UHGV virus genome: UHGV-0116495
Source of the DNA: a virus
Length of the DNA stretch: 10,863 nucleotides
Reading direction: 5' to 3' (one strand)
Below are positions 2,248 through 10,517 of the stretch, one piece after another; positions within the stretch are counted from its first letter, which is position 1, and every line of letters begins with the position of its first letter. The position numbers and the translations under genes are program-made. The notes below the pieces were generated by a model. That model ran no database searches and was not told where the DNA came from. It saw nothing but the letters and a program-made list of their open reading frames with translations.

Positions 2248-2409
2248 TTACGCACCAATGCGCCCTTCCTTCTTAAAGCTTTCCATTACTCGCTGATAAA
2301 TCTCAGAATTAACAGACCGACCATTTTCTTCCGCCACCTTGCGTACCAAATCCAATACTTCTTTAGGCCACCGCAAATTGAACTGTGGCATTTTGCTCAT
2401 TCCTTTCAT
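2248..2409 (-). CDS. arc: Arc repressor (ribbon-helix-helix), 53 aa
   Basis: Translation MKGMSKMPQFNLRWPKEVLDLVRKVAEENGRSVNSEIYQRVMESFKKEGRIGA is essentially the P22 Arc sequence as I recall it (one R/K difference). GAGGTGA RBS 5 nt upstream of the ATG at 2409. The longer track ORF starting at 2472 begins inside the operator and is rejected. Confidence 0.9.
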   Translation of the reverse strand: MKGMSKMPQFNLRWPKEVLDLVRKVAEENGRSVNSEIYQRVMESFKKEGRIGA

Positions 2410-2425
2410 GTTCACCTCACAATAT

Positions 2426-2442
2426 AGGTCCACGGTGGACCT
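2426..2442. promoter_or_regulatory. Mnt operator (Omnt), 17-bp perfect palindrome AGGTCCACGGTGGACCT
   Basis: Exact match to the P22 Mnt operator as I recall it; lies just downstream of the Pant -10. Confidence 0.8.
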
Positions 2443-2448
2443 ATTGAG

Positions 2449-2477
2449 AATATAGTAGAGTGCTTCTATCATGTCAA
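2449..2477 (-). promoter_or_regulatory. Pant promoter (-35 TTGACA, 17-bp spacer, -10 TATATT) driving arc-ant
   Basis: On the - strand: TTGACA (complement of 2472-2477), a 17-bp spacer containing Oarc, then TATATT (complement of 2449-2454). Omnt overlaps the expected transcription start. Confidence 0.7.
2452..2472. promoter_or_regulatory. Arc operator (Oarc), 21 bp ATAGTAGAGTGCTTCTATCAT
   Basis: Matches the P22 Arc operator with TAGA/TCTA half-sites; located between the -35 and -10 of Pant. Confidence 0.8.
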
Positions 2478-2499: not shown

Positions 2500-2754
2500 A
2501 TGGCTAGAGATGATCCGCACTTTAACTTCCGTATGCCTTTGGAAGTAAGAGAAAAATTGAAATTAAGAGCCGAGGCTAACGGAAGGTCAATGAACTCTGA
2601 GTTATTACAAATCGTTCAGGATGCACTATCAAAACCATCACCGATTACAGGATATCGCGACGAAGCTGAACGCTTGGCTGATCAGCAGGCTGAGCAGTTC
2701 AAGGCTATAGTGTTTGAGACACTTAAAAAGATTTATGAAAAGGATTTGAAATGA
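2500..2754 (+). CDS. mnt: Mnt repressor (ribbon-helix-helix), 84 aa
   Basis: N-terminus MARDDPHFNFRMPLEVREKLKLRAEANGRSMNSELLQIVQDALSKPSP matches P22 Mnt as I recall it. GGAGTGA RBS upstream. Divergent from arc-ant across the operator region. Confidence 0.9.
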   Translation: MARDDPHFNFRMPLEVREKLKLRAEANGRSMNSELLQIVQDALSKPSPITGYRDEAERLADQQAEQFKAIVFETLKKIYEKDLK

Positions 2755-3086
2755 GATTTCTATCACTGTTCTTGTTAGCAGTTGTCTCTTCTTCCAGTGC
2801 TGAGCTGCGCGAGCTTCAAACGGGTAATGACCTTCTTTACAACATTCAACAAGGTAAAAAGGGTGATGATTTTTCATCGCTTTACATTACTGGATATTTG
2901 CGCGGAGTAACTGACTCATTGATACTAATTGGTTCTCTATGTCCTCCTGATGGCGTTGACATGTATCAATACACCGATATCGTTGAGAAATATCTAAACA
3001 AAAACCCAGAATCAAGAAATGAGAGTGCAGTTATACTAACCGCCCTAGCAGTAGGAAAAACATTTCCGTGCAAAAAGAATCAATAA
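2751..3086 (+). CDS. Small secreted protein, 111 aa: predicted Sec signal peptide, two Cys in the mature part, family unknown
   Basis: Start ATG overlaps the mnt stop (ATGA at 2751-2754), implying translational coupling. N-terminus MRFLSLFLLAVVSSSSA-ELRE looks like a cleavable signal peptide. Mature part has two Cys (LCPPDG and FPCKK). Visibly AT-richer than the flanking late genes. Confidence 0.55.
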   Translation: MRFLSLFLLAVVSSSSAELRELQTGNDLLYNIQQGKKGDDFSSLYITGYLRGVTDSLILIGSLCPPDGVDMYQYTDIVEKYLNKNPESRNESAVILTALAVGKTFPCKKNQ

Positions 3087-3101
3087 CAATAAGGGCTTAA
3101 A

Positions 3102-3491
3102 ATGAAATTGATTATAGCAATGGCTTTCCTTGTCTTCTCGTTTTCTGTCTCAGCAGAGTGCTGGGTCGTTGGAGATATGCACGGAATAAGCTATTCAGAA
3201 CGAAATAATTTTCAACCGGAAGAAGATGGTTTTAGTGGAACATTCATCATTAAGACAAACGATGAAGATGCCAGTATCACATATTCTGGGACGGATGCGG
3301 GCGGCATGGCTTACAAAGCATTGTCTAAAAACTCCATCATTGGAATCGGTGCGAATGGCGAAACTCAACGAGTTATCGACTCATGGGTAATACATCCTAA
3401 TGGAACAGTTTTAATGTCGAAAACCATTTCTGGTTATGGGAATATGGATTCAACCAAAGCTTTTGTTGGAAAAGTAAAAAGAAAATGTTAA
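3102..3491 (+). CDS. Small secreted protein, 129 aa: predicted Sec signal peptide, Cys near both ends of the mature part, family unknown
   Basis: AAGGG RBS 7 nt upstream of the ATG. N-terminus MKLIIAMAFLVFSFSVSA-ECW looks like a signal peptide without a lipobox. Gly/Ser/Thr-rich, probably mostly beta. Same strand as, and 15 bp after, the previous ORF. AT-rich. Confidence 0.55.
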   Translation: MKLIIAMAFLVFSFSVSAECWVVGDMHGISYSERNNFQPEEDGFSGTFIIKTNDEDASITYSGTDAGGMAYKALSKNSIIGIGANGETQRVIDSWVIHPNGTVLMSKTISGYGNMDSTKAFVGKVKRKC

Positions 3492-3515: not shown

Positions 3516-5357
3516 TTACTGCTGTGTTGCCTCAGTAGCAAGCAGCGGCCTGATGGCATTTGCAGCGTTACTCAACGCTCTTTCATAGGCTGGCGTTCCA
3601 GCTTTAGTGTTTGCCAGACGTAAGAGAGCATTCCTTGCTGCTTTGGACTCATACAAACGCATCATTGCACCAAAGCCAGCCTCAAGCCCCATTGATACAC
3701 CAAGAGTCGCAGTTGCGCCAATCGTCCTTATCCTGTTGGCTTGTGATTGCCCCGTCTGAGTTACTACATTTGCGGTGTCTGACCTTGCTGTTTGCTGTAG
3801 AACTTCATGAAGAGCATCAAGCTCTTTCATGTGCTTTCCAGAAAAAATAGTGTTGTAAATTTCACCGCCTGACTGAGATTTCAGCTTATTAACTTCAGTG
3901 ATGAACTTGGCTGGAGAGTCACCGGCCTTTTCCGCTATTTTGCTGACGTAAGCTGCACGCATAGCATCTTTCCCTTTATCATCCAGGGCGCTCCATATTC
4001 GTTTCACGTCAGATGGTTTTCTGCTTAATACAACGGTATTTATAAGTTCAGGACTGGCTTCACTGCTTGCCTTGTTGAGCTTGTTAGCAATGTTTTTATT
4101 AAGCACCTTATTATAAACGTTTGCATAATCGGAATTTGCTTTAAGGTATTTTGCTGCGTCTGATGCACCGAGGTTTTTAGCAACTGCGTTACGAAGGTCT
4201 TTTGACATTGCATTCTCTACCATATTGGTAGCTGCTTTTGCCTGGTTGGGGAAGACCATAGCATCTCCCTGAACATTAGATCTAAATGCTGTTCTGTGCT
4301 GACGCAAGAGATCAAACGTAACATCCAAATCAGTTGCAGGGTTTGCTAATTCTTCACGTAGGTTACGCAAGGATGTAAGCAGGCTTTGATTGGCAGACGT
4401 CCCAAGCCGTTCCTGTCTTGCGATCGCTGTATTCAGAGCATTCATGGTATTTGTGGTATCAACTGCGGCATTACCCATTTTATTGGTGACGTCATTGATA
4501 ACAGCGCCAGCGGCATCCTTCCGCCCCCTTAACGTGGTGGTAAGAGATTTCACCACATCATCAGGGTTGTACTCACCAAAACGGTCAAAATAATTACTTA
4601 CCAGCTTACTACGCGTTGCATATTGCTCCGCTCGCTTTGAGCCTGTCCCGAGCAAAGCCCCCTCGGCATCCTGAGTTAGGCCGCGAGTGAAAGCATTTTT
4701 CGGCGGGATAACATCAGATGTCATTGGTGTCACGCCCATCGATTCTGATGTGGCAATTTTCTTCGCCACTTCTGGCGCAATATCACCTTTTATAGCCGTT
4801 ATTCCACGCCCTATTCCCTTTGCTGCTGCGGAAAGAACACCCTGAGTGGCAAGGTTAACTCCGGCATTTTTAGCTGCATTTTGTGCGAAATCGCCTTTCT
4901 GATTTGCGGCCTCTGCCAGTGATCCAATAGCCATGCTTCCTGCCGTTCCAACTCCTGGAACTAAATACCCACCAATTGTTTCACCGGCTTGCGCGTAGGG
5001 GTCTGTCGGTCTGTCTACTGGACGATAAACATCATCCAAAACCTTGGGTCCACCAAGCCCCTGACTGATTGCATTAATCAGACTTGCGCCGCCCTGCAAT
5101 ACGTCAAATGGTATGTTTACCAGACCACGACCAGCCTGTTCTGCAATTTGCCCTGCACTTTGACCACCAGTGAGCCAATCGCCAGCTTGTTGGATCAATG
5201 ATGGTTCTTCCCGTGTTGGTGCATTATTGGCCTGATTAACTGTTTGTTGCTGAACAGCCTGACCAGCAAAATACTCATCAATGGCGGTGCCAATATCTTC
5301 GGTGCTCGTACCATCAGGAAAGGTAAATGTCTTACCGTTTGCAGTTACTTTCATCAT
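3516..5357 (-). CDS. gp16: P22 gp16-like ejection (injection) protein, 613 aa
   Basis: Position and size match P22 gene 16 (about 609 aa) in the 7-20-16 order. Start ATG overlaps the gp20 stop (ATGA). Ala/Gly-rich composition typical of ejection proteins. Confidence 0.85.
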
Positions 5358-7474: not shown

Positions 7475-7930
7475 CTATCTCCCGTGATTCAGGAATTCGA
7501 TTAGTTCTTCGCGTGTAGCACTGTAAAATGTCACGTCATCCACGCCTTTGAAGTATTTCTTGATGGTTCCTACACGCTTAAGTCCAATCATTGCGCAGTA
7601 CATCTGCCCGTGGCGGAATTTGCGTGCAGCGAACGATGTGACGCACTGAACGGTGGTGTTAGTCAGAATGTATCGCCAGAACGCCAGCCCGATTTCCTTG
7701 CTGAATCCGCGAATCTCTGGCAGGTACATGGCGTGGCAATCGAATGTAAGCGGCTGAATCTCCTGATAGTAAACAATGCCGCCGAACTGCCCGTGCACGT
7801 TCACCTCAAAGTAACGGCAATCAGGTTTGTAGTCGTATCCATCACCGTTGTTGCTCCCGGCAATAATGTCAGGGTGATTTCCGACTGCTTCGATCAGGTC
7901 GATGTTTCGCGTTGGTTTGAACTGAATCAT
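7475..7930 (-). CDS. gp14-position protein of the P22-like late operon, 151 aa (call is by synteny)
   Basis: Lies between the tail-needle fragment and gp7, where P22 has gene 14. Its ATG overlaps the stop of the upstream needle fragment by one base (TAATG). I do not recognise the sequence itself. Confidence 0.55.
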   Translation of the reverse strand: MIQFKPTRNIDLIEAVGNHPDIIAGSNNGDGYDYKPDCRYFEVNVHGQFGGIVYYQEIQPLTFDCHAMYLPEIRGFSKEIGLAFWRYILTNTTVQCVTSFAARKFRHGQMYCAMIGLKRVGTIKKYFKGVDDVTFYSATREELIEFLNHGR

Positions 7931-8403
7931 TACTGCTCCGCGATTATCTTGATGGTTGTGGCAGTAAACGCCGCACCATTAGACTGAATGGTTAACGTGC
8001 TGCCATTTGTGGCAAGAAAGCCGTCTTTATCCACACTGAAGAACGTAGCTAACAGGATGTTGTCGGTTGTTGTCGCCGCATTACGACTGCTGACCAACGT
8101 GTCAGGAACAGAGCCGGAAAAGGTTAGCTGCATTGACCTGTTGGTGGTTCCGCTGGGCCACGTCCCGACAATCGACAGCTTGAAGAACAAGGTTTTGTTC
8201 TCGTTGAACACAACCATCTTGTTGTTAACAGTGTCGAAGAATGGTGCCAACGTCCCGGATGACGGCGTGAGCGTTTTCAGCAGGCTAACAAGGTTGGTCG
8301 GCGCTGTCGGAATGGTTACTGATACGCCAGAGTAAACAACCTCTGACTTCTTGCGCGTGGTTGCATACTCCAGAGCATCAATGCGCGTTTCATGGTCTGA
8401 AAT
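7930..8403 (-). pseudogene. 3' fragment of the tail-needle gene (P22 gp26 family): end of the coiled coil plus C-terminal domain, about 157 codons, no start codon
   Basis: The in-frame region runs from the stop at 8404-8406 to the stop at 7930-7932. It contains ISDHETRIDALEY, resembling the DHE-containing heptad repeats of the gp26 coiled coil. There is no ATG or GTG before the TTG at 8250. The gene's 5' part, including the gp10-binding N-terminus, is absent. Stop overlaps the next gene's start as in an intact late operon. Confidence 0.6.
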
Positions 8404-8464
8404 CTATTGTTAATCTCCAATCAATGTTACGTTGTCATCTCACTCATGCTTTGGAGGTAGTGAT

Positions 8465-8644
8465 ATGTCTTGTCCAAAATGCGGTTCTGGAAATATTGCA
8501 AAAGAAAAAACAATGCGTGGATGGTCTGATGATTATGTGTGCTGCGATTGCGGATACAACGACTCTAAAGACGCATTTGGAGAGCGTGGTAAAAACGAGT
8601 TTGTCAAAATTAATAAAGAAAGCGAAGGCAACGAAAAAAGCTAA
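8465..8644 (+). CDS. Small zinc-ribbon protein, 59 aa (CPKC-x18-CCDC), with an acidic/lysine-rich C-terminal tail
   Basis: GGAGG RBS (8453-8457) 7 nt upstream of the ATG at 8465. Four Cys arranged as CxxC...CxxC. Followed by a strong terminator. AT-rich. Confidence 0.5.
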   Translation: MSCPKCGSGNIAKEKTMRGWSDDYVCCDCGYNDSKDAFGERGKNEFVKINKESEGNEKS

Positions 8645-8707
8645 TTTATTTATTCATATATGAAAACAATGTAACCAATATTCGAATTGAAGAACTGAAA
8701 GAACACC

Positions 8708-8731
8708 AAGCCGCCTGATGGCGGTTTTTTA
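8708..8731 (+). terminator. Rho-independent terminator after the zinc-ribbon ORF
   Basis: Stem AAGCCGCC/GGCGGTTT (8 bp including one G-U pair), loop TGAT, followed by TTTTTT. Confidence 0.65.
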
Positions 8732-8744
8732 TTGGAGACAAGAA

Positions 8745-9089
8745 ATGTCAGATTTGGCTATGAAGGTTTTGAAATGGCAATCGACTGGCGATGTCGGCAT
8801 CAGTAGCGCAACTCTTGCCTCAATCGCATGTGGACTGAAAAAGAATATCTATGGTCATCACTTCGGCGCTCCACATGACGCAGCAGATTTCCGACGATGC
8901 GTTGCACTTGTTGAGCAGATTCCAGAAATCAGAGATTCATTCGACAAGGTTGCAAAGCGCGTTCCGGCATTCAAAGGAATCCTCAACGAATGGGATTCAC
9001 TCGTTGCTCTGTTGAAGTCTGAAATGAAGGCGTACGGGAACAAAGCACCAGAGACTTACAGAAGAATCAGCGAGCTACGCAAGGACTAA
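8745..9089 (+). CDS. Hypothetical cytoplasmic protein, 114 aa, family unknown
   Basis: GGAGA RBS (8734-8738) about 6 nt upstream of the ATG at 8745. The track's earlier ATG at 8718 lies inside the upstream terminator loop and is rejected. No signal peptide or transmembrane segment is evident. Confidence 0.5.
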   Translation: MSDLAMKVLKWQSTGDVGISSATLASIACGLKKNIYGHHFGAPHDAADFRRCVALVEQIPEIRDSFDKVAKRVPAFKGILNEWDSLVALLKSEMKAYGNKAPETYRRISELRKD

Positions 9090-9125
9090 CGCCTCACACT
9101 CGATGAGGCCTGTACATATCTGATA

Positions 9126-9150
9126 GAGCCGCTATATGGCGGTTTCTTTT
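9126..9150 (+). terminator. Terminator-like hairpin plus U-tract between the 114-aa ORF and the alpA-like gene
   Basis: Stem GAGCCGC/GCGGTTT (with G-U pairs), loop TATATG, followed by CTTTTT. An upstream hairpin GCCTCA-N7-TGAGGC lies at 9091-9109. Confidence 0.45.
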
Positions 9151-9166
9151 TGCCTGGAGAATTAAG

Positions 9167-9358
9167 ATGACCGATACCAGCCTGATTCCTGAGAAAGAAG
9201 TGATGAACAAGCTCGGTGTTTCATCACGTCAGACAATCTGGAACTATACCAAACGGCACGGATTTCCGAAGCCAGTCAGAACCCACCCCAAATCATACCT
9301 TCGTGAAGCTGTTGAAGGGTGGATTCTTAACGGTGGCGTTAATCAGAAATGCTCCTGA
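9167..9358 (+). CDS. AlpA-family DNA-binding protein (prophage excisionase/transcriptional regulator), 63 aa
   Basis: LIPEKEVMNKLGVSSRQTIWNYTKRHGFPKPVR...EAVEGWI fits the AlpA/Xis-like winged-helix pattern (L-P-E-V...G-S-R-T-I...G-FPKP...W). GGAGA RBS upstream. Adjacent to the integrase. Confidence 0.75.
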   Translation: MTDTSLIPEKEVMNKLGVSSRQTIWNYTKRHGFPKPVRTHPKSYLREAVEGWILNGGVNQKCS

Positions 9359-10517
9359 TGTGCCAGAACAATTTATCAGCGTGAAGCTCATACGCTTTGC
9401 GCTGAGCCTCTATCCAGTCGTGTTTATTGTACACGGACATTATCCCGCCAAGTTCATGACCGAGCATTCGCTCAGTAACATGAGGCTCGACATTCATCTC
9501 GGACAGACGTGTAACAAGCGTTCTTCTGAAATCGTGTGTTCGCCAGTAACCTAGATCCATCCCTCCCCTTATTCTATTTACGAATCGGTTGGCTGCAGCG
9601 ATGCTGATCGGTTTGTTTATGTCTTCTCCAGGGAAAAGAACATCATTGTACGTTGTCATGGCCTTTTCGAGGAAAGGCTTAATTTGTTCGAAGATTGGAC
9701 GGCGGATAACATTACCCATCTTGCTATGCTCTTTCGGTACGGTCCATACGTTTTCCAGCAGATCAAATTCTGTCTTTTTTGCCAGCCTAAGCTCTGAGAG
9801 CCTCGCCCCCCACAGCATAAGCATCTGATGAAGTAGCTTATTTGACGTAGACGCACGGCTTCTTTCAATAGCAAGCCAAATCTTAGCCAGTTCGTGATAC
9901 GACAGTACCCGATCCCCTACCTCAGCGCGGGAGCCGAAGTCCCTTGGTTGGATGCTCATAATTGCGCAACTATCTATCAACTGACGCCGCATGCACCAAC
10001 TTATTGCTGATCTTAGTTGACTTAGCACCTGCCTTGCTCGGCGTGGATTATCTCTTTCTTCTTCGGTAAGCAGGTCAACCCATTGCTTAACCGTGATAGA
10101 AGATGCCGGACGATTAGGAAAGGCGTCATGCATGCGCTTCATAACCGTTGATCGGTAAAGTGCCTGGGTCTTTTCTCTGAGAGTTGTAGAGACGTAGTTG
10201 TCGAACCAGTAGTCGAGACACTGGGCGACCGTCATGGAGTTCTCCACCTTCTCTTCAAAATAGGTGCGTGGATCCGTTCCTGAGAAATAGAGCTTTCGCA
10301 AGTCAGCAGTGATCTGTCTGGCATCCTTCAAAGACAGGGATGGGTATCGACCAAGCCCAAGTCGATTAGGCTTGCCATGCCAGCGATAGCGGTACTGGAA
10401 CTGGATGACCCCCTTCGGTGAAATTCGTACGCTGAGGCCATCGGCATCAGCCACTTCTTGTGGGCCCGAATATGGTTTACCATAAATAGTACGCAGTTTT
10501 GTGTCGCTTATAGCCAT
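9339..10517 (-). CDS. int: Tyrosine site-specific integrase, P4-type (N-terminal arm-binding domain plus catalytic domain), 392 aa
   Basis: The N-terminus (DGLSVRISPKGVIQFQYRYRWHGKPNRLGLGRYPSLSLKDAR) is typical of the P4-like integrase arm-binding domain. The C-terminus has the catalytic motifs ARLSELR, HDFRRT, LGHELGG and SVYNKHDW (Tyr). It is the last prophage gene before sbcB. Confidence 0.9.
   Translation of the reverse strand: MAISDTKLRTIYGKPYSGPQEVADADGLSVRISPKGVIQFQYRYRWHGKPNRLGLGRYPSLSLKDARQITADLRKLYFSGTDPRTYFEEKVENSMTVAQCLDYWFDNYVSTTLREKTQALYRSTVMKRMHDAFPNRPASSITVKQWVDLLTEEERDNPRRARQVLSQLRSAISWCMRRQLIDSCAIMSIQPRDFGSRAEVGDRVLSYHELAKIWLAIERSRASTSNKLLHQMLMLWGARLSELRLAKKTEFDLLENVWTVPKEHSKMGNVIRRPIFEQIKPFLEKAMTTYNDVLFPGEDINKPISIAAANRFVNRIRGGMDLGYWRTHDFRRTLVTRLSEMNVEPHVTERMLGHELGGIMSVYNKHDWIEAQRKAYELHADKLFWHIRSISD

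Follow-up and report, generated by a model that had tools for sequence, protein, structure and literature searches.

Phage P22 carries the superinfection-exclusion gene sieA between the maintenance repressor gene mnt and gene 16. Which genes occupy this slot in the virus genome UHGV-0116495, and what could they do for a lysogen? We analyzed the whole 10,863-nucleotide stretch of this genome (termed the window here), in which an initial annotation had noted two open reading frames (ORFs), for proteins of 111 and 129 amino acids, in the sieA slot after mnt. Both frames are intact. The observation is real, yet the two proteins are not a pair from unknown families, as had been supposed. ORF111 is a new, orphan, and phage-borne member of a characterized immunity family, and ORF129 falls into a family that is uncurated and has one studied member, Hex of phage 434. 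We assign a probability of about 0.55 to the reading that mnt, ORF111, and ORF129 form a lysogen-expressed cargo ("moron") or lysogenic-conversion operon in the immI/sieA slot; the cassette probably protects the envelope of the lysogen. The two genes in question are:

2751-3086, plus strand: ORF111, 111 amino acids, a predicted periplasmic immunity-type protein of the Rap1a/Tai4a family (PF18602)
3102-3491, plus strand: ORF129, 129 amino acids, a predicted small secreted beta-barrel protein of the Hex family (by homology and structural model)

Profile comparison places ORF111 in the Rap1a/Tai family. The Pfam Rap1a immunity model (PF18602) matches the protein with an E value of 9.7e-15 and 55.3 bits, compared with a gathering score of 27.7, and the match extends over residues 24-107 of ORF111 and positions 1-90 of 90 in the model. 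The same domain is carried by 6/6 close homologues, RefSeq names the gene "Rap1a/Tai family immunity protein," and the protein is assigned to phrog_3870; NCBIfam and PADLOC returned no match. ORF111 resembles Rap1a from Serratia marcescens Db10 ("Tai4a," PF18602) and AtTai4 from Agrobacterium tumefaciens (PDB 6IJF) in its size, its N-terminal leader, and the full-length match to the hidden Markov model. Rap1a has a 26-residue signal sequence and a disulfide between Cys-78 and Cys-122, and its dimer sterically blocks the active site of Ssp1, a type VI secretion system (T6SS) effector (PMC3852654). A cysteine pair aligned with this disulfide is also found in ORF111, where Cys-64 and Cys-107 (spacing 43) are invariant among the homologues and align to the AtTai4 disulfide formed by Cys-80 and Cys-124 (chain residues 58 and 102, spacing 44). 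In a model calculated with AlphaFold2 (AF2), Cys-64 directly follows helix 2, and Cys-107 is located past the last helix. The characterized members of the PF18602 family all neutralize the T6SS amidase Tae4 (PMC3852654, PMC6277958). From its family membership, the expected target of ORF111 is therefore a bacterial T6SS amidase and not phage machinery. The initial annotation had proposed that periplasmic proteins made by a prophage are placed to interfere with envelope-targeting enzymes or with incoming phages; this survives as a general idea but, in the case of ORF111, not for the phage half of the proposal. Work in Serratia indicates that immunity specificity follows the fold, which makes Ssp1- or AtTae4-like effectors likelier targets of ORF111 than the Tae4 enzymes of Salmonella and Enterobacter, which are neutralized by the other Tai4 fold (PMC3852654).

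No effector gene is located beside ORF111 in any locus examined; its neighbors are mnt and a Hex-like gene. As an immunity gene, ORF111 is therefore an orphan, and the prophage carries it as cargo. In this respect it differs from Rap1a and AtTai4, since its gene is not part of a T6SS cluster or placed next to a Tae4 effector but is coupled to the prophage gene mnt. Its close relatives (64-82% identity) all follow mnt directly in P22-like prophages of Escherichia coli and Serratia. Stand-alone Rap1a-family genes are also present on conjugative plasmids of Pseudomonas syringae and Rhizobium etli and in two unrelated phages; family proteins scoring above the Pfam threshold are encoded by phages vB_BspP_Dartukuta (locus L046, 2336-2698) and DSL-LC04 (locus L045, 2932-3258). 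In the literature searched, no phage-borne Rap1a/Tai gene has been described, though RefSeq already names the gene. Orphan T6SS and contact-dependent inhibition immunity islets are comparable. The SAIDI-1 islet of Salmonella Typhi, which includes a Tai4-like gene, holds predicted periplasmic orphan immunity genes that have been proposed to act against the cell wall-targeting effectors of competitors (PMC7400221). Like these genes, ORF111 has no cognate effector and is predicted to be periplasmic, but it is carried by a temperate phage, and its expression would be linked to a repressor of lysogeny, not to an islet in the chromosome. A Serratia fonticola prophage (locus L010, 8001-8715) contains two tandem Rap1a genes, for 112 and 119 amino acids, in the slot from mnt to gene 16. 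They are 32% identical to each other's counterparts, and the tandem pair resembles the multi-gene arrays of orphan immunity islets.

By sequence, ORF129 is homologous over its full length to Hex of phage 434 and to Sf6 gp38. A tblastn search found it 28.6% identical to both over 100% of its length (E 1e-6), and the phage 434 homologue, annotated as "repressor protection protein," is Hex. When a profile of the ORF129 clade was built without Hex, hhalign aligned it to Hex with 99.3% probability (E 1.1e-20, 128 columns), and ORF129 is found in phrog_2651 (E 1.8e-59). No match was obtained for ORF129 in Pfam, NCBIfam, or PADLOC. By exhaustive profile search, the Hex family comprises 218 clusters at 50% identity; among the best 150 of these 218 clusters, sizes range from 69 to 195 amino acids and are mostly ~125-140. 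A Pfam scan of 120 diverse Hex-like proteins gave no credible match. In 161/215 full-length members, a Cys-Trp (CW) motif near residue 21, most often preceded by Ala-x, follows a hydrophobic leader, and a cysteine is present within the last eight residues in 201/215. ORF129 has these hallmarks in the form of VSA/ECW (A-x-C-W; slashes mark predicted cleavage sites) and a terminal KC, and it thus shares the leader, the CW motif, the C-terminal cysteine, and homology over the full length with 434 Hex and Sf6 gp38.

The AF2 model of mature ORF129 is a nine-strand, all-beta small barrel, with a predicted local distance difference test score (pLDDT) of 94.7 and a predicted template modeling score (pTM) of 0.85. 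Foldseek returned generic fold matches only, with the soluble barrels Cap15, NHBA-C, avidins, and designed barrels scoring equally well. There was no match at E <= 0.001 in BFVD, and the profile of the ORF129 family, when searched against PDB sequences, yielded noise only. A lysozyme inhibitor of the MliC/PliC type, which the initial annotation had guessed at for the 129-residue protein, was rejected: Pfam MliC does not match, hhalign against E. coli MliC gave 3.7% with the leaders alone aligned, and the ORF129 fold and MliC share just the same general small beta-barrel architecture.

The initial annotation had also described a signal peptide and paired cysteines in each protein, and our analysis agrees. 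Signal peptides were called by sequence heuristics (Kyte-Doolittle core and the residues at -3/-1). Both N termini look like Sec leaders, with a basic residue 2, a 10-residue hydrophobic core (Kyte-Doolittle 3.0 in ORF111 and 3.2 in ORF129), and small residues at -3/-1, and cleavage is predicted at SSA/E in ORF111 and VSA/E in ORF129. The ORF111 leader, MRFLSLFLLAVVSSSSA followed by E, corresponds to residues 1-17 (2751-2801) and has a basic n-region; its sequence varies among the homologues, while its hydrophobicity is kept. The leader of ORF129 comprises residues 1-18 (3102-3155). Beyond the leaders, no hydrophobic segment is present in ORF111 or ORF129. Each protein contains exactly two cysteines, Cys-64 (2940-2942) and Cys-107 (3069-3071) in ORF111 and Cys-20 (3159-3161) and Cys-129 (3486-3488) in ORF129.

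ORF111 and ORF129 are both real genes under purifying selection. For ORF111, the proportion of nonsynonymous differences (pN) is 0.07-0.23 and that of synonymous differences (pS) is 0.38-0.91, and the ratio of nonsynonymous to synonymous rates (dN/dS) is 0.14 where measurable; for ORF129, dN/dS is 0.26-0.32. The number of assembly blocks indexed with an identical ORF111 protein is 3033. Frame disruption in ORF129, which 104-amino acid gene calls might suggest, was rejected: these calls differ in the start codon only, and the 129-amino acid frame is intact in 6/6 loci checked. Start calls by RefSeq/PGAP and other callers are inconsistent, with 104, 122, or 129 amino acids (the window; locus L048, 9427-9741; locus L047, 3473-3841), and RefSeq uses a later start, giving 104 amino acids, in E. 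coli strain C. The short calls hide the secreted nature of ORF129, because the leader and the conserved Cys-20 are removed.

The Hex family is uncurated, and its genes are nearly always located beside a phage lysogeny repressor. We examined about 10 loci individually, and the contexts reported here are those of this sample rather than of a census. The Hex-like gene overlaps the cI stop in 434 and in Klebsiella and Yersinia prophages, is convergent to cI in an Enterobacter prophage, and abuts gene 16 in P22-like phages (the window, Emek, L012/L013, and L026-28). Aeromonas Hex-like genes are found in small integrase- or resolvase-bearing islands, and the one in Cedecea belongs to a short run of ORFs that lack annotation; the 12 kb examined there contain no recombinase gene. 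No T6SS or toxin gene lies beside the Hex-like gene in the sampled contexts. As with 434 hex, the ORF129 gene is downstream of a co-oriented lysogeny repressor gene, with ORF111 intervening in the window. The start of 434 hex overlaps the repressor stop, an overlap that in the window is made by ORF111 and mnt. ORF129 differs from 434 Hex in its sequence (29% identity) and in being located behind mnt and ORF111 in immI near gene 16, not at cI in immC. In the Aeromonas and Cedecea loci (L014, 5449-5877; L015, 5458-5877; L017, 5241-5699), an ORF of 139-152 amino acids without a Pfam family is located just upstream of the Hex-like gene and may be a conserved partner of it.

Among complete E. coli genomes, the ORF111 allele is present in 26/5426 and ORF129-type genes in 147/5426, and the two are therefore not an obligate pair. 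A Rap1a and Hex-like pair recurs in another prophage, with 66% and 48% identity to the window copies and just 36% identity in Mnt. We rejected a toxin-immunity pair formed by ORF111 and ORF129: ORF129-type genes occur without ORF111 in ~120/147 E. coli genomes and in 434, Sf6, and Emek.

Knowledge of Hex comes from phage 434. Its gene is co-transcribed with cI from PRM, and its name reflects that lambda-imm434 lysogens of Salmonella exclude P22 (PMC3564112). Spontaneous induction increases 30-fold when hex is deleted, but only in recA+ cells, and a 6-kDa fragment termed sHex inhibits the cleavage that RecA stimulates in the 434 and P22 repressors in vitro (PMC3564112). Overproducing Hex in full-length form is lethal, and the cleavage of Hex was left unexplained; the authors defined hex as a 158-amino acid ORF with its start inside cI (PMC3564112). 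We translated this ORF (locus L002, 2429-2905) and found it to be the 134-amino acid protein with 24 additional upstream residues, and sHex (Glu-43 to Asn-103 of the 158-residue ORF) corresponds to Glu-19 to Asn-79 of the 134-residue protein. The fragment starts exactly at the predicted signal peptidase site, ANS/ECW, and covers about half of the predicted barrel. This suggests that Hex is an exported protein, for which lethality on overproduction and an unexplained cleavage of the full-length form would be expected. The published 434 Hex mechanism is cytoplasmic, whereas a periplasmic location is predicted for ORF129. No periplasmic Hex has been described in the literature searched.

For the mnt-ORF111-ORF129 operon, we propose the following mode of action, which goes beyond what is shown (gene order, coupling, the family of each protein, the fold of ORF129, purifying selection on both genes, and ORF111 as an orphan). 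Transcription from Pmnt in the lysogen would yield Mnt and, through translational coupling at an ATGA overlap, ORF111, and ORF129 would be translated from its own Shine-Dalgarno sequence 15 nucleotides downstream. Both proteins would be exported by Sec and cut after Ala-17 (ORF111) and Ala-18 (ORF129). ORF111 would then be a small, disulfide-stapled helical protein that, by analogy to Rap1a-Ssp1 and AtTai4-AtTae4, would dimerize. The dimer would sterically plug Ssp1-type Tae4 enzymes, which are gamma-D-Glu-meso-diaminopimelic acid endopeptidases injected into the periplasm by the T6SS of a competitor, and ORF111 would be an orphan immunity gene spread by phages. Mature ORF129 would be a 111-residue beta-barrel that is probably shut by a disulfide between Cys-20 and Cys-129. 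We propose that it may act as a periplasmic factor for heterologous superinfection exclusion and would functionally replace SieA; its target would perhaps be the ejection conduit of gp7, gp20, and gp16 or a part of the envelope on which incoming phages depend. P22 SieA targets the gp16/gp20 conduit (PMC10883804). The window genes share with sieA the slot between mnt and gene 16, the mnt strand, and, by prediction, expression from the prophage, and the exclusion of P22 by Hex gives some independent support to the exclusion idea. Homology to SieA itself was rejected: BLASTP gave E values of 3.0 and 6.5 for the two ORFs, and neither has a hydrophobic segment past the leader, in contrast to the inner-membrane protein SieA.

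Several of our results weigh against this reading. In a phmmer search of PDB, the sole match of ORF111 was A. tumefaciens Tai4, at a weak E value of 0.08, and Rap1a itself was not matched; pairwise similarity to the solved Rap1a/Tai4 members is weak. The AF2 model of ORF111, calculated from seven sequences, is all-alpha with four helices and mediocre (pLDDT 80.5, pTM 0.54), and the reference fold of the family is a five-helix bundle (PDB 3ZFI/6IJF). A Foldseek search of PDB with this model gave no significant match and did not recover Rap1a or Tai4, but the search is uninformative because the model is weak. The lack of an effector gene next to ORF111 counts in the same direction. One phage with a PF18602 protein is labeled as a Bacillus phage. 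Unless this label is mistaken, T6SS immunity would be meaningless in such a host, and the PF18602 fold may thus serve other targets. As for ORF129, the only biochemistry on Hex (PMC3564112) assigns it a cytoplasmic role in blocking RecA-stimulated repressor cleavage, and the phenotype of P22 exclusion comes from old genetic work on a relative with 29% identity.

Could ORF129 be a second orphan immunity protein, directed against an envelope toxin such as a T6SS effector, a bacteriocin, or a lysozyme, and the cassette a two-gene interbacterial defense islet? We consider this unlikely, given that the ~10 contexts of Hex-like genes are all phage immunity regions or small islands with no toxin or T6SS neighbor and that ORF129 has no Pfam, NCBIfam, or PADLOC match and reaches 3.7% against MliC in hhalign. 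In addition, the sole studied member of the family has a phage-exclusion phenotype (PMC3564112). A converse possibility is that ORF111 serves in superinfection exclusion, as a periplasmic inhibitor of a phage-borne peptidoglycan peptidase and not in T6SS immunity. T4 Spackle, an inhibitor of the gp5 tail lysozyme, is a model for such a role; ORF111 occupies the sieA slot of a phage, and Rap1a-family genes are present in several unrelated phages, including lytic-looking ones. Stand-alone copies on conjugative plasmids fit interbacterial defense better, however, and we know of no NlpC/P60-type virion enzyme in P22-like phages. Together with the shared target of all characterized family members, the T6SS amidase Tae4 (PMC3852654, PMC6277958), this makes a role of ORF111 against phage peptidases improbable.

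We give similarly little weight to the mechanism published for 434 Hex, under which ORF129 would be a protein or fragment in the cytoplasm that stabilizes lysogeny by blocking the RecA-stimulated autocleavage of cI/C2-type repressors. The 30-fold, recA+-dependent induction of the hex deletion and the inhibition of repressor cleavage by sHex speak for it (PMC3564112), but the leader and the cysteine pair found throughout the family argue for export. The cytoplasmic model is further weakened because sHex begins at the predicted signal peptidase site and holds about half of the predicted barrel, and because the window gene follows Mnt, not an autocleaving S24 repressor, and persists intact in remnants without the entire immC region. 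Against it also stand the lethal effect of full-length Hex on overexpression and its unexplained cleavage. Still less probable is a small outer membrane beta-barrel of the Lom/Ail/OmpX type that changes the surface of the lysogen. Mature ORF129 has just 111 residues, several of its predicted strands are 6-7 residues long, and its C terminus, KVKRKC, lacks an aromatic beta-signal. The cysteines of the family, at the mature start (161/215) and near the C terminus (201/215), and the soluble barrels that score as well in Foldseek point in the same direction. ORF129 does not match the eight-stranded outer membrane barrels (OmpX/Ail/Lom, NspA, and OmpW), which are marked by membrane-spanning strands, a mature length of at least ~150 amino acids, and a C-terminal aromatic beta-signal.

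Our preferred reading therefore remains a lysogenic-conversion operon with an orphan immunity gene and a Hex-family gene. If ORF111 truly neutralizes T6SS amidases, lysogeny by common enterobacterial phages would protect bacteria in contact-dependent warfare, and its role would connect the spread of phages with competition within the gut. The leader and the cysteine pair conserved in ORF129 offer a testable reinterpretation of Hex, whose moron family has members next to the repressors of 434, Sf6, and many prophages and has been known genetically since 1980, with a convincing mechanism lacking. Only tentatively do we join the two parts, such that P22-like phages would spread T6SS resistance (ORF111 against Ssp1-type Tae4) and Hex would be a periplasmic block to DNA entry, its published cytoplasmic mechanism reflecting a non-native fragment. 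Under that joint reading, periplasmic "shield" genes coupled to repressors might be a design common to the immunity regions of lambdoid and P22-like phages, a generalization that we regard as equally doubtful. The cassette is intact in several deleted E. coli prophage remnants (including loci L004, L047, and L048, which keep the mnt cassette), and its survival in decayed prophages suggests a benefit for the host.

The window itself is a deleted remnant of a P22-like prophage in E. coli. Around the two genes, the following features define the slot:

2444-2472, plus strand: Pmnt-like promoter match from a consensus scan, with the layout of the annotated P22 mnt promoter
2477-2449, minus strand: Pant-like promoter match from a consensus scan, with the layout of the annotated P22 arc/ant promoter
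2500-2754, plus strand: mnt, the maintenance repressor gene (Pfam Arc E 3.7e-28, Repressor_Mnt E 1.3e-11)
3516-5357, minus strand: homologue of gene 16 (DNA ejection protein), convergent, at the far edge of the sieA slot (by gene order)

The divergent and overlapping Pmnt-/Pant-like pair (2444..2477) has 10/12 and 11/12 consensus matches, as in P22 immI, and the DNA at mnt is 86.6% identical to P22 arc/mnt. Gene 16 was assigned from the P22 layout and because loci with the same order of genes encode a product with PF26808 (Phage_P22_gp16) in this position. As stated in the initial annotation, the first ORF overlaps the mnt stop: the TGA at 2752-2754 and the ORF111 ATG at 2751-2753 form the sequence ATGA. 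A Shine-Dalgarno-like AAGGA is located 6 nucleotides upstream of the ORF111 start. ORF129 starts 15 nucleotides past the ORF111 stop, with a Shine-Dalgarno-like AAGGG 6 nucleotides upstream, and a scan of the interval between mnt and the end of ORF129 found no terminator-like site on the plus strand. The counterpart slot in P22 reads mnt-orf59a-terminator-PsieA-sieA, followed by the convergent gene 16. The GC content is 0.37-0.39 across ORF111 and 0.43-0.47 in the flanks.

Besides mnt, ORF111, and ORF129 on the plus strand, the minus strand encodes a tailspike head-binding domain, ant, arc, genes 16, 20, 7, and 14, and an integrase. An ORF for the tail-needle knob (7930-8250, minus strand) retains just the C-terminal 106 residues, is of the Sf6 type (PF16532 positions 70-175), and adjoins a Lar-like zinc-finger gene, two small ORFs, and the integrase (8432-10517). 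No head, lysis, replication, or immC genes are present in the 10,863 nucleotides. It is this absence, together with the truncated knob gene, that identifies the window as a deleted remnant. Locus L004, which was fetched with the exact ORF111 protein, has an identical architecture.

Inside ORF111 (2956-3012, plus strand), we noted two promoter-like matches, TTGACA-16-TATCGT and TTGAGA-18-CAGAAT, which could give ORF129 its own transcript. A separate transcript would fit the ORF129-type genes that occur without ORF111 behind a reverse-strand gene (locus L047). In these FORC_031-type remnants, the reverse-strand gene encodes 139 amino acids (L047, 2915-3334) and has a weak PEGA-domain match. The slot from mnt to gene 16 is highly variable; in phage Emek (locus L001, 1484-2583), it contains several small ORFs and a DUF4065 protein ahead of the Hex-like gene. 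The mechanically called arc ORF (2248-2472, minus strand) has 74 amino acids from an upstream ATG, and P22 and related loci use a 53-amino acid Arc (2248-2409).

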